A stretch of DNA of 63,965 bases, the filler included, from Globobulimina sp. (taxonomy: Eukaryota), in assembly GCA_003354225.1 (NCBI GenBank). It is 57 parts of 57 records of this genome, joined end to end, with 100 filler letters (N's around TTAATTAATTAA, not from the genome) between each part and the next. Parts side by side here need not be neighbours in the genome. Positions count along the whole stretch, not along the records: positions 37,107 to 38,130 come from PIVH01025521.1; 56 more parts are not named here. One strand, given 5' to 3'. Shown here in pieces: positions 2,251 through 56,104 of this stretch (within the stretch, counting starts at the first letter, position 1; each line of letters starts with the position of its first letter). Made by a program: the position numbers and the translations under genes. The notes under the pieces were generated by a model. The model was not told the origin of the DNA. It saw only the letters and a list, made by a program, of their open reading frames with translations, and ran no database searches.

Positions 2251-2574
2251 CTCTCCTGTATAACTTGTTAACTTTAAAGTTACATTATAATCACCAGCTT
2301 CCGGATAATAGATTTGGTAGGTTTTACTTTTATCAGAGGTGGTATCACCTTCACCATTCCCAAAATCCCAGATCAGCCAATAATAATCACCTTCAGATTG
2401 ATTTAAGAAAGAAACAGTATTGTCGTCTACAAATTCGAAGCTGAAGTCAGCTTTAATATCTGAACCATCATCATTTTTATCGCATCCCATAAAGGTTAGC
2501 AATGATGAGAATAATATGATAGTTAATAATCTAATTACTATCTTTGAATTTATTGCTTTTTCTTGATTTATCAT
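2251..2574 (-). CDS. Bacterial PKD-domain lipoprotein, 3'-partial (Bacteroidetes-like)
   Basis: Signal peptide with lipobox TFMG-C; ADFSF..VSFLNQS..WDFGNG..YPEAGDYNVTL PKD signature. Confidence 0.85.
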
Positions 2575-2780
2575 TTGCTCAATCTTTTCCCTTTTTTTGA
2601 AAATGCTATGAAATGCTTCATTAAACCCAACTATTGATGCTTTTGATATTAACCACATACAAAGAAATAATAATAGGTCTGTAGTTATTAGAAATTCATC
2701 ACATCAAAAACTCATCATTAATAAAATATAAGCACATCAAAAACACTGTTAATTTTTGTATACTGTTGTTTTTATGCAAT

Positions 2781-2818
2781 TTCCATATATTCACAACTCG
2801 CATTGTGAATATATGGAA
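2781..2818. terminator. 16-bp perfect intergenic stem-loop (RNA stabiliser or atypical terminator)
   Basis: TTCCATATATTCACAA-CTCGCA-TTGTGAATATATGGAA, 11 nt after the stop of the minus-strand gene; no U-tract on the coding strand. Confidence 0.6.
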
Positions 2819-2829
2819 CACATACCACT

Positions 2830-3275
2830 CTATTTTTGTTCAGGTTTAACGCTAGTGAAGATGTGATACCATGCAGCTGATTCATCCTCTTCTATTCTAA
2901 CCCTTAGTATGGTTTCTGATATCTCAATAATATCATAATCACTGGTACCTACCCACCAACACATAAAGCCTCCGTCAGAAATTTTGATTGATGTTCCTCT
3001 ATATCCTCCATCAATCGATGCTTTGGTTGTAGAGGGAGCAAATGATGCATTCTTAACCCCATACAGCGCTGGAGCTACATCTTCACCATGACAAACATCG
3101 CCTTCTACTCCAATCTTTGCTGCATATGTACCTGGAATAAATGCAGGGCCGGTTGTTTGTTCATATGTAAATGTATTTCCGGTTTTTGTAAATACTAATT
3201 CCGCAGAATACATACATGATTTATCAGGGTCGAATGGACCTATTTGCCACCAGTTTGGCCATGTATAATCAAGAG
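2830..3275 (-). CDS. Bacteroidetes-type surface glycan-binding/PKD-associated protein, 5'-partial
   Basis: C-terminus SDGGFMCWWVGTSDYDIIEISETILRVR..WYHIFTS resembles polysaccharide-utilisation-locus surface proteins; co-oriented with the PKD lipoprotein. Confidence 0.55.
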
Positions 3276-3432
3276 NNNNNNNNNNNNNNNNNNNNNNNNN
3301 NNNNNNNNNNNNNNNNNNNTTAATTAATTAANNNNNNNNNNNNNNNNNNNNNNNNNNNNNNNNNNNNNNNNNNNNAAATTTCCAACAATTTATTATTGCC
3401 AACAACCGTTCCAACAAAGAAAAGATGGCGGG

Positions 3433-4400
3433 TTGCCTTTGAAACTCCAGAATTATCTCAATAAATTTCAACAAAATGGAACCAATAACAATATCCGTGC
3501 ATCGCAACTAATTAACGGTCTGTTGCAACTTAACAAGAACAACAATTCAACAAATCCGACATATCAAACTGCCAGCAACGAAGCAGTCAATTTTGTGTTT
3601 GCATTTTGTGATAATATCGATTCACCAAAAGATAATATTTTAATCAACTCACTGTTACATTTGTGTTATGACTTTAACAGCCATGGAAAATGTCTTCTGC
3701 TTTGGAATGAAATAAGAATATTACACTTATTACGACAAAACATATCATATTCAGTGCTGCTTAAATGTATGATTGAGTTAAATCAAACAGATAAATGTAT
3801 TCAAGTGTTGGCATGGATGCAATCCTCGGAATACAAACTCAAAATTCATGACTGTTTCGTGACAAAATTAATTTCAAACTGCAATGATGTTAAACAATTG
3901 CAATATATCCATTCCTTAATCGACCAAAACATTATCAAAAATGCCACCAAATTTATCAAAACACAAATGATTTTATCATACTCCAAGTTTAGAGATATTA
4001 ATAATGCATTAAATATATTCAATTCCATTCCAAATGACAAGAAAGACATTGTATCCGTTGGTGCCATGTTAACTGCTCTCATTGATACTGATTGCAACCA
4101 TGAAGCCATACAATTATACGACGACATTGAATCATTTAATAACGGCTCGTTGCGGCGAGACAATATATGCCATAACTTATGCATCAAAGCTTGCGGAAAT
4201 ATTGGCAATTTAGAGAAAGGCAAAGCAATTTATACTGAGATTGATGAATTCAGTGAGGACAACATACAAATTCAAAATTCGTTCATTGATTTTTTTGGTG
4301 ATTGCTTTGAAATTGAAGCCGCTATGAATGTCTTTAATAGAATGGATGATAAACATAAAGACATTGTGAGTTATGGAGCTTTGATGAAAGCGTTAATCAG
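3433..4400 (+). CDS. Pentatricopeptide-repeat protein, PLS-like, partial
   Basis: Repeats TQMILSYSKF..ALNIFNSIP..KDIVSVGAML and NSFIDFFGDC..AMNVFNRM..KDIVSYGALM. Confidence 0.8.
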
Positions 4401-23518: not shown

Positions 23519-23795
23519 NNNNNNNNNNNNNNNNNNNNNNNNNNNNNNNNNNNNNNNNNNNNTTAATTAATTAANNNNNNNNNNNNNNNNNNNNNNNNNN
23601 NNNNNNNNNNNNNNNNNNTGCCACAATGCAAAACGAACATATTCGTAAATTAAATAAAGTAAGTAAGTAAGTATGTTTTAATCGATTTTAATTTTTTATA
23701 ATTATAGGTAATTTCCAAACAAGAAGATGCGATTCGGACACAAGGCAGAAGAATTTACGAATTGCGAACAAGAGAGGGTGACAAAGATTTAAAAA

Positions 23796-24642
23796 TTGTT
23801 GTCCATAATTGTTCATGCTGAATACTATGTTAATTTTGATTTTGACTCAATATATTTTATGAGATATCAGAAAGACACAGAAAAAGAGTCAGTTAATCGA
23901 TTAAATAGAGAAAAATTGGAAAATGTTGAACCAGAAACGAGAAGAGACGTGGACAGAAGTGAAAAAGGAGTAGCTGAAATATGTAGCAGTACACAATTGG
24001 CGACAGCAACAAATATAGAAAAGAAAGTTTGTATAATTGTTGACATTGCTCACAAGAAAGAGTCAAAATCAGTACTTTCAATTGAGCAACATTACAAACA
24101 ACAGTTGCGATCAATTTGGAAACAACTGCTAAAAGTTAATACATTTACTGACAATGACAGCTTCTTTGAACTTGGAGGGGACTCGTTGCTTGTTAGGAAA
24201 TTAGTTGTTGCTTGTCGGAAGAAGTTAAAATCAAGAAAAATCACCTCAATAGATGTGTTTGAACATCCTACCATCGCACATTCAACAAATTGGCTTAACG
24301 GAGGAAAAGTTAATTCAGTGGTTGCAAAAATTCCAGCCAGTCCATCACCCTTGCCTTTCCCAGTGGCTATCATAGCCATATCTGGTCAGTTTTCTGGTTG
24401 TTCTGACCCCTATGATTTTTGGGAACAAATTAAGAACGGTGTGGAATGCACTGAATCTTGGTCAAGAAATCAACTGATTAATCAAGGATTCTTAAAAGAA
24501 ACAATTGATCAACCAAATTTTATACAAACATCAGGTCATGTAACTGGAATTGAACATTTCGATCATAAGTTCTGGTCATTTTCGCACAAAGATGCAAGTT
24601 GTATGGATCCGCAGAAGCGAAAAATGTTAGAACATTGTTATT
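23796..24642 (+). CDS. Carrier protein (PP-binding) + type I ketosynthase N-terminus; NRPS-PKS hybrid-like, partial
   Basis: IWKQLL..DSFFELGGDSLL..DVFEHPTI; VAIIAISGQFSG..FW..G; FDHKFW..MDPQKRKMLE. Confidence 0.9.
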
Positions 24643-25331
24643 NNNNNNNNNNNNNNNNNNNNNNNNNNNNNNNNNNNNNNNNNNNNTTAATTAATTAANN
24701 NNNNNNNNNNNNNNNNNNNNNNNNNNNNNNNNNNNNNNNNNNATTTGATTGTTGATTTTCAAGTTAATTGATTAGACTATGTCCAAGTAAGTGTTTTTCG
24801 AGACCGTTACATTTGATGTCTACTTATGTCTAAGAGGATTGCTTGCTAGCAGCGTGGATTAATGAATAGTCCTCACTCTATTGCCTCTACTGTCTCTCCA
24901 TATGGTTTATAATCCATTTGCAAAATAAACCTCCTAACTTATGTCCTTGTTTAGTAGAATAAGAAGAGGGAAGTAAGTTTTGTAATTAATTAATTAAATA
25001 AACTGAGTCGAAGTGACGTCAGACAACAATGTAATATAAGAATATAATACCTCCACATAGAAAATCGCTAATGGCAAATGCAACAAAAATGGTCGCATAG
25101 CTCAAGCAGAGCACTGGATCGATCCAGAAGATACAGGTACAAATCCTGTGGCGACAGCAAATCATTATGTGATGGATTTGGATTTTATGGAATGGATGAA
25201 TTTGAATAGAAAAAAATGAATTTTGTGGTGAGAATTTGGTGGTGATGTAAACCACCACGGTTTGAAGAAGCAATGGTATTATAAACATATATAGAGGGGG
25301 CAACACAGTAGCATTGCGGGTCGATAGACCC

Positions 25332-29138: not shown

Positions 29139-29571
29139 NNNNNNNNNNNNNNNNNNNNNNNNNNNNNNNNNNNNNNNNNNNNTTAATTAATTAANNNNNN
29201 NNNNNNNNNNNNNNNNNNNNNNNNNNNNNNNNNNNNNNACAATGATATTGCTACTAATGTGTTCAACATGTTTTCTGTGCACTTTATTAATGTTTAATTC
29301 AATTTGATAATGAAATGATTAGTTTGCGATTTGTAAAATGTAAATGTCAATGTCCGATATCGGTGATGCTATTTATCGTAAACAGTGATAGTTACAAAAT
29401 ATAGTTGCAGCTGCAAGGAACATCACGTTGTTTTAGAATATACAGCAAATAATCAATGAAGATGATTGGTGGAATAATTAGAACCCCGCACTGTTATATT
29501 AACACATGATGCATGATTTAAATTCAAAACTTAGTCAAGATCACATCATCATAACAATCATCATAACAATC

Positions 29572-30262
29572 ATGTGTTCACCCTTTGCATGTTTTAGTAA
29601 AATGACGACTAACGACCAAAAAAACAATGCTGAAAAACAAATGCAATTAGCGAGACAAATGGAGCAACAGACCATACGGGTCTTATTATTAGGCCCTGGC
29701 TGTTCGGGCAAAACCACCATTTTGAAACAAATTAAAAAAATTCATTGCCGAGATGGTATTTCAGAGCGAGAGCAGTTGAACGACCGCCAGAAAATAACCA
29801 AATCCATTCAAGACGCAGTCGTCGAATATATGCGGATTTTATGCGTGGAAGCTCCTAAATTAAACATACAATACAACACCAATACGATCGTAAGCGATTC
29901 GTACGAACATATTCGAAAAGAGTTTGAATTATTACACCCAGAGAACCCACGTTCTTTAACCGAGGACGTCGCAGCAAAAATTGCAATGTTGTGGGAAGAT
30001 CCTGGCATCAAAGCAACGCTCGCCGCCAGGCAACATTTTCAAATCGCAGATAATGTGTCTTACTTTTTCGACCGCATTGGCACAATCTCGCAAATCTCGT
30101 ACGTGCCCTCGTTCGATGACTATGTGCGATTTCGACATCGTTCCGCCGGTTCGAGCAAAACCAAAATACAAATCGATATCAGCACTTTCGGGAAACATAC
30201 ATTTGAGTTTACTGACGTCGTCGGTCAGAAATCTGAGAGGCAGATATGGATGAAATTTCTCG
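29572..30262 (+). CDS. Heterotrimeric G-protein alpha subunit, divergent, 3'-partial
   Basis: VLLLGPGCSGKTTILKQIKKIH, LWEDPGIK, YVPSFDD, DVVGQKSER..W. Confidence 0.9.
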
Positions 30263-36619: not shown

Positions 36620-37160
36620 TTGACCATTTTTCGCTCCGACCGGCTTCCGAAAAATGGCCATAATTCCGAGATGGATTATCCGATCGGGCTGAAATTTCTT
36701 TGGCGGTATCCTGCATCCATACTTCATTGATTGTGTGATTTTCAAGAAAATTGGCCCGTTCCCAAAAAAGTCGATTTTTTCGGATTTCATTTTTAACATG
36801 CAAATTTTTCCAAAATTTTCGAATTTTGATAAAATGATCCCAGATTCGCCTGGTTGCAACGATCATTTTTGGTATATAAATGTCTGGGATTGGATATCTA
36901 CCAAAAGAGATATTTGCAAGCAACCTCCAGGGCCAACCTTTTTTAGACAGACTTTAGTTTATTTGAGACATTTTGTGTAACTTAGTGGTAATCAGTAGTG
37001 ATAATTNNNNNNNNNNNNNNNNNNNNNNNNNNNNNNNNNNNNNNNNNNNNTTAATTAATTAANNNNNNNNNNNNNNNNNNNNNNNNNNNNNNNNNNNNNN
37101 NNNNNNGCTTTAAAGCCTTAATCCTTAAAAATACCAATCGTTTGTATTAAATAAACAATT

Positions 37161-38129
37161 TTATTGTCTCAAGCAACTCTTAAATATCATTGTTTGTTGT
37201 TCCGGTTCAATATTGTCGTAATATGTCTTTATTGAACTAATCGATCTCCAATCTCCTTGTTTCATAATTGTTGTTATTGGTACTTTCTTTTTTATGTACC
37301 ATTGCATTCCTCCTTTTCTTGCACTGTGTCCTGCGATTTTCTTTGGTTGAATACCAATTTCTTGTGCCAATTCTTTTAATTTATTGCTCATTCTATATTT
37401 ATTTATGGTTATTCCTTGTTTCAATGTCAATAATTGCTCCTTTTTTAATATTTCTATAGATTTCGTTTCCATTCTTGTTTGCAAAAATATTTTCAAATTA
37501 CATAATGCACATATTCCTTCATTGCATGTACAGATAAAATTTGCAAATAAATCACCTCCAAATTGGTAGGTTTTCCCTTTGTCTCTTTTTAATATGCAAT
37601 AAGTTGAATCTTTGAATTCTTTGCTGCTTAATTTATGTTCAAATTCAAGTTGTTTTATTTTCAATCCTGTTGCATCCTCTTTATTCTCTGTATATTCTGA
37701 TATCCTTTTTATGCCAAAGAAAGGCAAAGTGATCGCAACTAACCACATTTGCTTATCTTGTAATGATAATTTCGTGTCTCTTTTTATTGCGGCAGCCATA
37801 GATTTTAATTGATTTAATTTCAATGCTGATTTGCCTCCTTTTGATGGTCTTGCTCTTTTCTCTTCTTTTATTATGCCATGGACTCTCGGCATATGTTCTT
37901 TTGTTACATTTATATTTATGCTTCTTCCGATTAATAGATCTCGCACTGCGTAAATGTGGCTGTGCATGGCTGACCATCCTATATTGACACATGCATGTTT
38001 CCAAGTGATGAATCCAGCCATTTGTCTTTGGTCACAACTGTTTGGATTCTTGTTGTACAGCCGACAGTATATTAAGTAGTGTTTTTGAGTGCTGGAGTAC
38101 TGCTTTTTAGTTCTCTTTGCGTTTCTGTT
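37161..38129 (-). mobile_element. Tyrosine recombinase of DIRS/Ngaro/Crypton-like element (copy 1), 5'-partial
   Basis: Catalytic set FFGIKRISE (R), KGKT (K), GHSARKGG (HxxR), GDW (W), SIKTYY (Y); upstream in-frame RTKKQYSSTQKHYLIYC. Confidence 0.88.
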
Positions 38130-38521
38130 TNNNNNNNNNNNNNNNNNNNNNNNNNNNNNNNNNNNNNNNNNNNNTTAATTAATTAANNNNNNNNNNNNNN
38201 NNNNNNNNNNNNNNNNNNNNNNNNNNNNNNTTTTTTTATGAGTTTATGTTATATTTATGAGTTGAATATATACTGATACCCTTTGATACTAGTAACAAAA
38301 ATAAAAATCAGTAAAACAATATGAATTAATTAATTAAAACTGGTTAAACTGCTATTTGTGCTGTGCTGTGCTGAGGAAAAAGATGAGTTACTCTGCATTG
38401 TACAATCAAAAAAATGAAATACTACATAACATAACAAAAAAACAAAAAAAAAACGAAAACAAATCATTTGTTATATATTTGGTTATATGTTAAATATGGA
38501 AAGAAGGAAAAAACAGTATAT

Positions 38522-39215
38522 TTATAGTAATTGACATTTGCATCCACCATTATTATTGTTTGACGGTTCAGGTTCAATAATGATATTTTTATCTTTTTTT
38601 CCTTTTGGTTGTTGCCTATTTGGTACTTCTTGTGCTGTAACAGACGCATATTAATTATGTTTAGAATGATGTGTGTTTTGTGCGATTTTGCGTACGCAAA
38701 CAGATAAAAATAAATAAAATACCAATTGATCGAAATATTTCCTTAATATTGGTTGAATTTTTAGCAGAAGTTTCGAAAAATATGAAATTTTTTTCTTTTG
38801 CAAACTCAGAGCCTTCGTCAGTTGACACCTTTCTATTCCCCGCTAAATCCACTTTATTCCCCGCTAAGCCAATGACGACGTGGTTGCCTTCCTGGGTTTG
38901 GACCTCTTCGATCCATTTCCTTGCATTCTCAAATGATTCCCGATTCGTAATGTCATACACAACCAATGCTGCGGACGCACCGCGGTAATACAATGGTGCC
39001 AATGACCTATATTTTTCCTGTCCGGCGGTGTCCCATATCTCAAATTTTACCAAATAATCGCCCACTGATACGCTTTGAGTCAAAAATGTGGCGCCAATGG
39101 TTGGGAATTTATATTGATCGAATTCATTTTTCACAAATCGAATAACTACGGATGATTTACCAACGCGACTATCTCCTAATAACACTAACTTCACTGTCAA
39201 CGGTTGCGTTGTCAT
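38522..39215 (-). CDS. RAB5: Rab5-family GTPase, complete, intron 38635-38722
   Basis: GDSRVGKSS, PTIGATFLTQ, WDTAGQEKYRSLAPLYYRGA, GNKVD, ETSAK; exon 2 ends GGCKCQLL*. Confidence 0.9.
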
Positions 39216-39354
39216 GATAAAAGATACTCACTTTCTTAGTTTTTTTTTACTTGANNNNNNNNNNNNNNNNNNNNNNNNNNNNNNNNNNNNNNNNNNNNTT
39301 AATTAATTAANNNNNNNNNNNNNNNNNNNNNNNNNNNNNNNNNNNNNNNNNNNN

Positions 39355-54981: not shown

Positions 54982-55162
54982 NNNNNNNNNNNNNNNNNNN
55001 NNNNNNNNNNNNNNNNNNNNNNNNNTTAATTAATTAANNNNNNNNNNNNNNNNNNNNNNNNNNNNNNNNNNNNNNNNNNNNATAATATACCATTCGTTGC
55101 TGGAGTGTCTGTAGGAGGTTTGCTGGATTACAATATAAATAAATTCCAATCGTTGCTGATAA

Positions 55163-56104
55163 TCATAGTCTATTTTTCCTCCTTTTTTTGTTCTTTTTAT
55201 GTTTTTTCTTGGCCTTTTTTGCCACTTTTACAAACATATCAATCCGTTTCTCATCTTGTACATTACTGTTGTACCTATTTAAGGATTTCTCAGTTCTCCA
55301 GTCGGCTTGCTTCATTATATAAGGTGCCGGTAATCCGTCTCGGATTGCTTGCTGAGCCCCTCCCTTTCTTGCGCCGTGCGGTGTTACTTCGCCAGGTTGG
55401 AAACCGCAGGCTTTGGTTAGTTTCCTGAACCCTTGCGCGAGTGCATATTTGTTTAGGGATTTCCCGTTTGTTAGTTTAAATATTAGATTCAAGTCCGAAT
55501 CCATATTATTGATCTTATATTTGATCAATTCGATGAGTGCATGCAATGCGCAGACACCACAGAAGCAGTTACATATGAGAATTGCTGTCAATTTGCCTCC
55601 GAATTGGTAGGTCTTTCCTTTGCTTCTGTTATATTTACAGTACTTGCTTTTGGTCCATTGGTCGTTGTCCAATGCATTTCCATCGAATGGGAATTGGAAT
55701 TCGAATTTTTTTAATTCAATTCCTTGCCCCAGTATGTCATCATAAGTTATTTCTGATCCTCTCTTTATGGCATCGTGTCCCAATGCCAATATCGTTTCCC
55801 ATATCAATATGTCCCTTTGGTCCATGGCCGGGTCCTTCCTGTTGATGCCATAGAATCTTTTTATCATTTCCCTATCGACCGGTTTCGATCCAGGCCCTGA
55901 GGGCTTTCTCCTTTTCTCTCCAATGATGTCATCATATAACTTCGGCATTCCCTTTGCCGAGACATCAATATTAAATCCCACAGTCTTTGCGTGGTCCCGG
56001 ATGGCATATTTATGTCCGTGCATTGCGGACCATCCTATTCCTCTTATTATCTGTTTCCATGCCAGGAATTGCCGTAGATTCCATTCTGAGAAATCCATAT
56101 TTGA
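55163..56104 (-). mobile_element. Tyrosine recombinase of DIRS/Ngaro/Crypton-like element (copy 2), 5'-partial
   Basis: AIKRGSE, KGKTYQFGG, PHGARKGG, ADW, SLNRY; basic NLS-like tail; clear paralog of 37161. Confidence 0.88.

Follow-up and report, generated by a model that had tools for sequence, protein, structure and literature searches.

Diverged Cre-like tyrosine recombinases in a Globobulimina assembly, probably from Ngaro-like retrotransposons

We analyzed two open reading frames (ORFs) in a 63,965-nucleotide (nt) window of the Globobulimina sp. assembly GCA_003354225.1, and found that both encode Cre-like tyrosine recombinases of a eukaryotic mobile-element family. The frames, referred to here as copy 1 (protein P0001, on contig PIVH01025521.1 at window positions 37107-38130) and copy 2 (protein P0002, on the contig at 55082-56104), represent two old, diverged lineages of one clade. 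Very probably they are the tyrosine recombinases (integrases) of DIRS-order retrotransposons with a Ngaro-like layout, a reading that we hold with greater confidence for copy 2 than for copy 1. The window, by which we mean the whole stretch of DNA analyzed, is made up of 57 contigs of 1023-1025 base pairs (bp) each, ordered by size and joined by artificial spacers (N44, the 12-nt TTAATTAATTAA and N44), and 2 of these 57 contigs encode a recombinase (tblastn, five recombinase queries).

Copy 1 occupies 37161..38129 on the minus strand, with 322 codons open to the contig end (37164-38129) and a TAA stop at 37161-37163. Copy 2, also on the minus strand, occupies 55163..56104, with 313 codons open to the contig end (55166-56104) and a TGA stop at 55163-55165. 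The two proteins share 34% identity (96/282; E 8e-59), and both score above the gathering score of Pfam family PF00589 (Phage_integrase; 27.1 bits), with 35.2 bits for copy 1 (E 1.4e-8) and 28.8 bits for copy 2, which bears out the first-pass annotation of this DNA as encoding two homologous but well-diverged tyrosine recombinases on separate contigs. Every motif that it listed as shared (IGWSAMH, EKRxxPS, KRxSE, KGKTYQFGGxLxA, HxARKGG and IMKQxDWR) is present in both copies, while its description of the frames as intact holds in part: all catalytic residues are kept and no internal stops occur, but neither N-terminus lies on its contig. The ORF caller started copy 1 at an internal ATG at 38021. 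Given that relatives P0003 and P0004 align with 36 copy 1 residues upstream of this ATG, the true start is at or just beyond the contig end, which cuts off approximately 1-18 codons. Copy 2 lacks approximately 42-45 N-terminal residues, judged against its relative P0008 of 355 amino acids (aa), and has a C-terminal tail rich in Lys and Arg.

The copy 1 sequence was recovered with 0 differing letters in sequencing runs of two studies, and is therefore not an assembly artefact. Logan contigs of four runs gave no extension of the copy 1 contig, and its part near 38090-38130 was without cover in them; no RNA run was among the sequencing runs listed for copy 1. In one run of the second study (X5), copy 1 contigs ended in sequencing-adapter letters at 37171, 37627, and 38079, suggesting very short or defined library fragments, with no bearing on the gene itself. 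Two other short Logan records from the same sample, with matches of about 84-87% to the conserved core across 47-55 nt, may represent further family members. The abundance suggested in the first-pass annotation is not supported as stated: it has behind it the 2 of 57 contigs, these two records, and several clusters of related reverse transcriptase proteins described below, and contig-level data give no copy number.

Relatives of the two proteins were collected by searching 1.84 billion representatives, which returned 211 at E ≤ 1e-3, 35 at E ≤ 1e-10, and 10 at E ≤ 1e-30; an alignment of 120 sequences of 260-460 aa was made from a set of 154. The AlphaFold2 model of copy 1 obtained with this 120-row alignment (mean predicted local distance difference test score, pLDDT, of 96.1; predicted template modelling score of 0.90) comprises an N-terminal helical, SAM-like core-binding domain (about residues 1-121; 37767..38129, minus strand), with helices at residues 5-24, 34-48, 52-68, 81-93, and 105-117, followed by the catalytic domain (about residues 122-322; 37164..37766, minus strand). 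In Foldseek, the whole model superposed on Cre as best match (template modelling score, TM, 0.70-0.74; E 4.9e-9), with Xer, integron, and lambda-type enzymes ranking below. The profile of the 120 relatives also matched Cre most strongly (E 4e-26 vs. 1e-14 for XerA, the next family), its positions 32-216 aligning to Cre residues 35-210, while a single-sequence search reached Cre only at E 0.03-0.08.

The R-K-HxxR-W-Y catalytic set recognized in the first-pass annotation is complete in both copies. In copy 1 it is encoded on the minus strand by the codons of R142 (37704-37706), K186 (37572-37574), H268 (37326-37328), R271 (37317-37319), W294 (37248-37250), and Y303 (37221-37223), together with E145 (37695-37697); the corresponding residues in copy 2 are R115, E118, K164, H243, R246, W269, and Y278. 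Conservation at these positions is nearly universal, with R142 and K186 kept in 120/120 relatives, R271 and Y303 in 117/120, W294 in 116/120, and H268 in 115/120.

Several lines of evidence set these enzymes apart from phage and bacterial integrases. The nearest ESM Atlas clusters were 94-100% eukaryotic, with Mollusca, Arthropoda, and Basidiomycota the commonest groups. No relative was found in 50,697 phage records, none in 2.9 million viral contigs searched with both the recombinase alignment and an alignment of reverse transcriptases (RTs), and none in prokaryote genome contigs (one per species) queried with a five-row recombinase alignment. Assignment to the Xer, lambda Int, or integron types was rejected, as NCBIfam XerA scored 19.5-23.8 bits against a cut-off of 220 and no close relatives were recovered from these phage, viral, and prokaryote collections. 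Neither window protein had a Pfam match to the Crypton-derived DUF3504 at E ≤ 1.

In a FastTree phylogeny of the 120 sequences, built with the columns of a cysteine motif discussed below left out, both copies fell inside a 13-row clade with support 98. A quick IQ-TREE run on 46 of the 120 rows, picked to span the tree, gave a Shimodaira-Hasegawa-like approximate likelihood ratio test (SH-aLRT) value of 95 for a core clade of 11 rows (copy 1, copy 2, P0003, P0004, P0006-P0009, P0014, P0031, and P0048) and 69 for the 13-row set. The synonymous divergence (dS) of copy 2 from P0008 was approximately 1.2, indicating that the lineages are old, and the ratio of nonsynonymous to synonymous divergence (dN/dS) was 0.054, indicating strong purifying selection on the recombinase.

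P0008 provided the genomic context of the copy 2 lineage. It is encoded on a metagenome locus of 5623 nt, L001, which was the sole locus obtained from a single metagenome scan. The terminal 119 nt of L001 (1-119 and 5505-5623) are identical, so the unit is 5504 nt long and closes on itself, an outcome that DNA in circular form, tandem copies, or the collapse of terminal or split direct repeats could each explain. Four frames lie on one strand; ORFs in L001 do not overlap and have gaps of 179-1058 nt between them. A 396-aa ORF (3116-4306) carries a finger-like C-x8-C-x7-C-x3-H motif and is gag-like by its position only, without Pfam support. It is followed by a 601-aa RT/RNase H frame that spans the contig join (4485 to 783), with a YVDD box and an RNase H domain (PF13456, E 1.7e-5); its RT part shares 34-36% identity with four proteins that have a precomputed PF00078 assignment, the matches covering 86-100% of its length. 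The 355-aa recombinase P0008 lies at 990-2057. Between the recombinase and the gag-like ORF there is a further 194-aa ORF (2502-3086), in a different frame from gag and with no family match, which could represent an additional real gene, the beginning of gag, or a chance frame. No methyltransferase was matched by Pfam in L001, and the RT/RNase H proteins of the family, at merely 531-649 aa, leave no room for one. Among inverted repeats in L001, the best reached 20-30 nt with 70-85% identity; inverted terminal repeats were not seen.

The copy 2 contig matches L001 at 82.9% DNA identity over 1033 nt, covering the whole contig including 91 nt past the stop codon, and copy 2 is 90% identical to P0008 as protein. 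The 3′ non-coding flank of copy 2 (55082..55162, minus strand) is homologous to L001 2058-2148. In L001, the copy 2 lineage has genes for RT/RNase H and for a gag-like protein as neighbors, so its enzyme is a retrotransposon recombinase rather than that of a Crypton-like solo unit. This settles for copy 2 the choice between DIRS/Ngaro and Crypton elements that the first-pass annotation had raised; for copy 1, the same answer is inferred. By published structural criteria the layout of L001 is Ngaro-like, and both frames most likely belong to this known kind of retrotransposon.

Beyond the recombinase frame, the copy 1 contig has just 54 nt of 3′ flank, and its retroelement context has to be reconstructed from relatives. 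The nearest of these, P0003 (43% identity), is recorded on a single European Nucleotide Archive (ENA) contig of 4,979 nt. P0163, an RT/RNase H homologue of 592 aa and one of 16 RT/RNase H relatives of protein P0156, also has just one recorded ENA contig, again 4,979 nt long. No other two contig sizes coincided, and we put the chance of such a coincidence at roughly 1 in 100 over all pairs, which is an estimate rather than a computed value. The RT/RNase H lineages are 35-52% identical to one another, having diverged in parallel with the recombinases; several of their clusters trace to one NCBI-sourced assembly, which is not necessarily this genome. Together with the position of copy 1 in the trees, the matching contig sizes and the parallel divergence suggest that copy 1 also belongs to a retroelement.

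A 9-nt motif, AACGAWTGG, recurs in the flanks of these genes. A weak match lies 21 nt past the copy 1 stop (37134-37142, minus strand), two copies lie in the copy 2 flank (55146-55154 and 55090-55098, minus strand), and L001 has it at 2066-2074 and 2134-2142, within a pair of 30-nt direct repeats 68 nt apart. When extended by WAT..T, the motif has five matches in the whole window on both strands, three of them in recombinase 3′ flanks. We rejected it as proof that the copy 1 flank is internal to an element, as 177/2000 shuffles and 10/220 control contig ends score equally.

In the mechanism that we propose, the element RNA would be copied into DNA by the RT/RNase H, as expected from the DIRS order, and the Cre-like recombinase would insert that DNA into the genome by site-specific recombination, using the R-K-H-R-W residues and a Tyr nucleophile.

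A distinctive feature of the catalytic domain is a cysteine cluster, which has the sequence ICTCNEGICALC in copy 1; the copy 2 sequence is ICNCFCGVCALH. In copy 1 it reads C200-x-C202-x4-C207-x2-C210 (37500..37532, minus strand), and in copy 2 the last ligand is a histidine, C178-x-C180-x4-C185-x2-H188 (55541..55573, minus strand). In the copy 1 model, C200 comes just after beta strand 194-199, and C207 and C210 open helix 208-220, with local pLDDT of 96-98; the modelled arrangement is compatible with a small zinc site. The CxC-x4-C-xx-C/H cluster lies just past the hairpin of the catalytic lysine, where the third beta strand ends and the following helix begins. The alignment of the family profile to Cre breaks at profile positions 217-284, a stretch that contains the cluster.

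All four ligand positions are Cys or His in 53/120 relatives, and a three-Cys form (C...CxxC) occurs in 35/120; 25/120 have only the Cys of the classical 'CPV', and 7/120 are mixed. Cys at copy 1 position 207 is present in 118/120. Of the three-Cys rows, 34/35 fall in one 36-row clade (support 99), joined by two four-ligand rows. Ligand positions 1 and 4 are both present in 88 relatives, the first only in 6, the fourth only in 0, and neither in 26, a co-occurrence that shared ancestry inflates. The motif types are clustered on the FastTree phylogeny (12 changes vs. 56 expected with shuffled labels), so their co-occurrence reflects a few gains and losses rather than 120 independent events. The cluster, which had been noted as unusual, is real, conserved in further homologs, and in contrast to the single-Cys 'CPV' of other relatives, but it is a trait inherited widely in a large group of eukaryotic recombinases and no mark of this protist. 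Given its presence in 53/120 relatives with co-occurring positions, we regard it as a candidate zinc site that is not peculiar to this organism. Most likely, it would be a structural zinc site that came to these proteins from that large recombinase group. More tentatively, and with somewhat less than even confidence, we hypothesize that CxC-x(2-10)-C-xx-C/H could be a true structural zinc site defining a large unnamed Cre-like branch of eukaryotic retrotransposon recombinases, with the three-Cys form as sister and the single-Cys 'CPV' elsewhere; if true, this would place a metal-binding catalytic domain within a tyrosine recombinase.

Full-text literature searches returned no description of such a cluster, and alignments in the subscription Ngaro and DIRS papers (Goodwin and Poulter; Poulter and Butler) may show one. 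It is not mentioned in the portions consulted of the Crypton (PMC3212892) and ALOG/DIRS (PMC3537659) papers. The zinc ribbon reported in the latter is another one and belongs to the N-terminal domain (PMC3537659). An ALOG-type zinc ribbon was rejected for the window proteins, whose N-terminal domains have no conserved HxxxC...CxC common to both copies. The C-termini of the RT/RNase H proteins (about 700-783 in L001, and in P0156, P0158, P0159, P0163, P0165, and P0166) show a conserved K-x-C-x-C-...-C-x-x-Q-x-L-Y-x-K-W pattern with no Pfam match, possibly a second candidate metal-binding element in the same retroelements.

Several observations weigh against assigning both frames to Ngaro-like retrotransposons. 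Queries with 14 RT/RNase H sequences found fragments on 0/57 window contigs (E ≤ 0.01), a recombinase beside an RT was never seen in the window, and queries with the L001 gag-like and 194-aa ORFs matched nothing better than E 0.69. Absence of RT and gag weighs little, given that the window samples contigs of 1023-1025 bp only. L001 comes from another sample rather than this genome, at a dS of 1.2 from copy 2; its RT part alone had no Pfam match, and its self-closing assembly hides any split direct repeats. The link between copy 1 and an RT consists of the equal 4,979-nt contigs and the tree position. Lastly, the trees hold no named DIRS, Ngaro, PAT, VIPER, or Crypton references, and the class was assigned by layout.

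One alternative is that copy 1, and possibly some of its relatives, are recombinase-only units, either a Crypton-like DNA transposon or a solo retroelement remnant, that move or once moved without reverse transcription. We consider this improbable. A contig with only the frame and 54 nt of flank and the lack of RT fragments on all 57 contigs would be in keeping with it, and retroelement recombinases and Cryptons are regarded as related (PMC4157794, PMC6681497). However, copy 1 nests in the 11-member clade with RT-linked P0008, the 4,979-nt contigs of P0003 and P0163 and the parallel divergence of RT/RNase H lineages (35-52% identity) point to a retroelement, and other element pieces are not expected from contigs of this size. 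We see even less room for the frames being host genes domesticated from a mobile-element recombinase for a cellular role, which is very unlikely even though dN/dS of 0.054 and open frames with all catalytic residues would suit it. Domestication is documented for Crypton recombinases, but in those cases most of the catalytic residues are gone (PMC3212892), and here all of them are kept. Moreover, the non-coding flank of copy 2 is also conserved with the retroelement L001, two lineages only 34% identical occur in one small contig sample, and the contigs break at both ends, as repeats would in short-read assemblies.

The least credible alternative, to which we attach hardly any weight, is that the contigs are viral, belong to a virophage-like or polinton-like element, or represent contamination, and do not stem from the organism's own retrotransposons. 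Recombinase genes reportedly occur in viral, virophage-like, and polinton-like elements, and the G+C content of copy 2 (0.41) is above the window mean (approximately 0.31). Against this, the 2.9 million viral contigs, searched with recombinase and RT alignments, and the phage records held no relative, L001 is a 5.5-kb retroelement rather than a capsid-bearing virus, and copy 1 occurs with 0 differing letters in the runs of two studies. Assignment of both frames to DIRS-order retrotransposons with a Ngaro-like layout remains the reading that we favor, and the setting is eukaryotic, with G-alpha, TRAF zinc-finger, pentatricopeptide repeat (PPR), Ras/Rab, and kinase proteins encoded on other contigs.

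Tyrosine recombinase retrotransposons are rare, with only a patchy record beyond animals and fungi, and the contigs and their relatives contribute two deep lineages of what is apparently a Ngaro-like family in an AT-rich protist. Representatives of the relatives number about 13 for the recombinase and 12 for RT/RNase H, drawn from metagenomes and from one NCBI-sourced assembly. The coupled gain and loss of Cys/His ligands over 120 recombinases makes zinc binding in the catalytic domain directly testable, and recombinase engineers may take an interest in how unusually strongly the family profile matches Cre (E 4e-26). The accepted working of such elements is unchanged by these findings.

The remaining contigs are those of an AT-rich eukaryote, with G+C content mostly 0.25-0.37. 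A domain scan covered the longest frames in 52 contigs, leaving aside the two with a recombinase and three that lack a frame of 100 codons. It matched G-protein alpha, TRAF-type zinc finger, PPR repeats, Ras/Rab GTPases, protein kinase, dual-specificity phosphatase, ankyrin and SAM domains, a polyketide-synthase fragment, ribonucleotide reductase, and an RNA polymerase subunit, a gene mix that is somewhat reminiscent of amoebozoans and points to a probably free-living, signalling-rich protist. On the plus strand, these include the TRAF-type zinc-finger protein (1621-2148), the polyketide-synthase fragment with carrier and ketoacyl synthase domains (23793-24641), and the G-protein alpha subunit (29503-30261), as well as a transfer RNA gene (25091-25157), the sole Rfam match of the window at 35.6 bits. 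On the minus strand, a Rab/Ras-family GTPase frame (38664-39227; Pfam Ras, E 2e-59) is no longer similar close to its C-terminus, which a short intron might explain; its contig adjoins that of copy 1 in the order of the window, which implies no linkage to copy 1.

Among known systems, Cre of phage P1 (1crx, 1ma7, 5u91) shares the two-domain fold over its full length (TM 0.70-0.74), and the family profile aligns with its N-terminal domain and its R-E, K, HxxR, W, and Y positions (E 4e-26). It differs in that pairwise identity is just 12-14% and that Cre is a phage enzyme acting on loxP, not a retroelement integrase; Cre is not known to have such a Cys cluster. Cryptons are likewise eukaryotic mobile elements dependent on a tyrosine recombinase of the same superfamily (PMC3212892), but they carry no RT, in contrast to the RT/RNase H gene that adjoins the copy 2 lineage. 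DIRS1-like elements such as Dictyostelium DIRS-1 share the use of a tyrosine recombinase in place of a DDE integrase, and are described with a methyltransferase domain, ORFs that overlap and place the recombinase upstream of the RT, and inverted terminal repeats accompanied by a complementary region inside the element (PMC3266345). We rejected this type for L001, which has no methyltransferase, inverted repeats that exceed neither 30 nt nor 85% identity, a recombinase located after the RT/RNase H, and no ORF overlap. The PAT-like type, with a methyltransferase and split direct repeats, was rejected as well, as no methyltransferase domain was found in L001 or the RT/RNase H proteins. In the VIPER-like layout, the recombinase precedes the RT/RNase H; the L001 recombinase follows it, and this type was also set aside. 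The VIPER-like group is known from kinetoplastids (PMC6681497).

Ngaro-like elements, which have been reported from fungi and Cafeteria burkhardae as well as from zebrafish and sea urchin (PMC8547959, PMC4157794, PMC3266345), are the closest in layout. L001 differs from them in that it closes on 119 identical nt, with the A1-[ORFs]-B1A2B2 split direct repeats not seen, and in that its RNase H matches Pfam RVT_3, while the Cafeteria elements are reported with PF17919 (PMC8547959); the host here, an AT-rich protist, is also different. What L001 shares with Ngaro-like elements is the order of a putatively gag-like ORF, RT/RNase H, and tyrosine recombinase on one strand, the lack of a methyltransferase and of ORF overlap, a length of approximately 5.5 kb, and a recombinase with HxxR and the catalytic Tyr.

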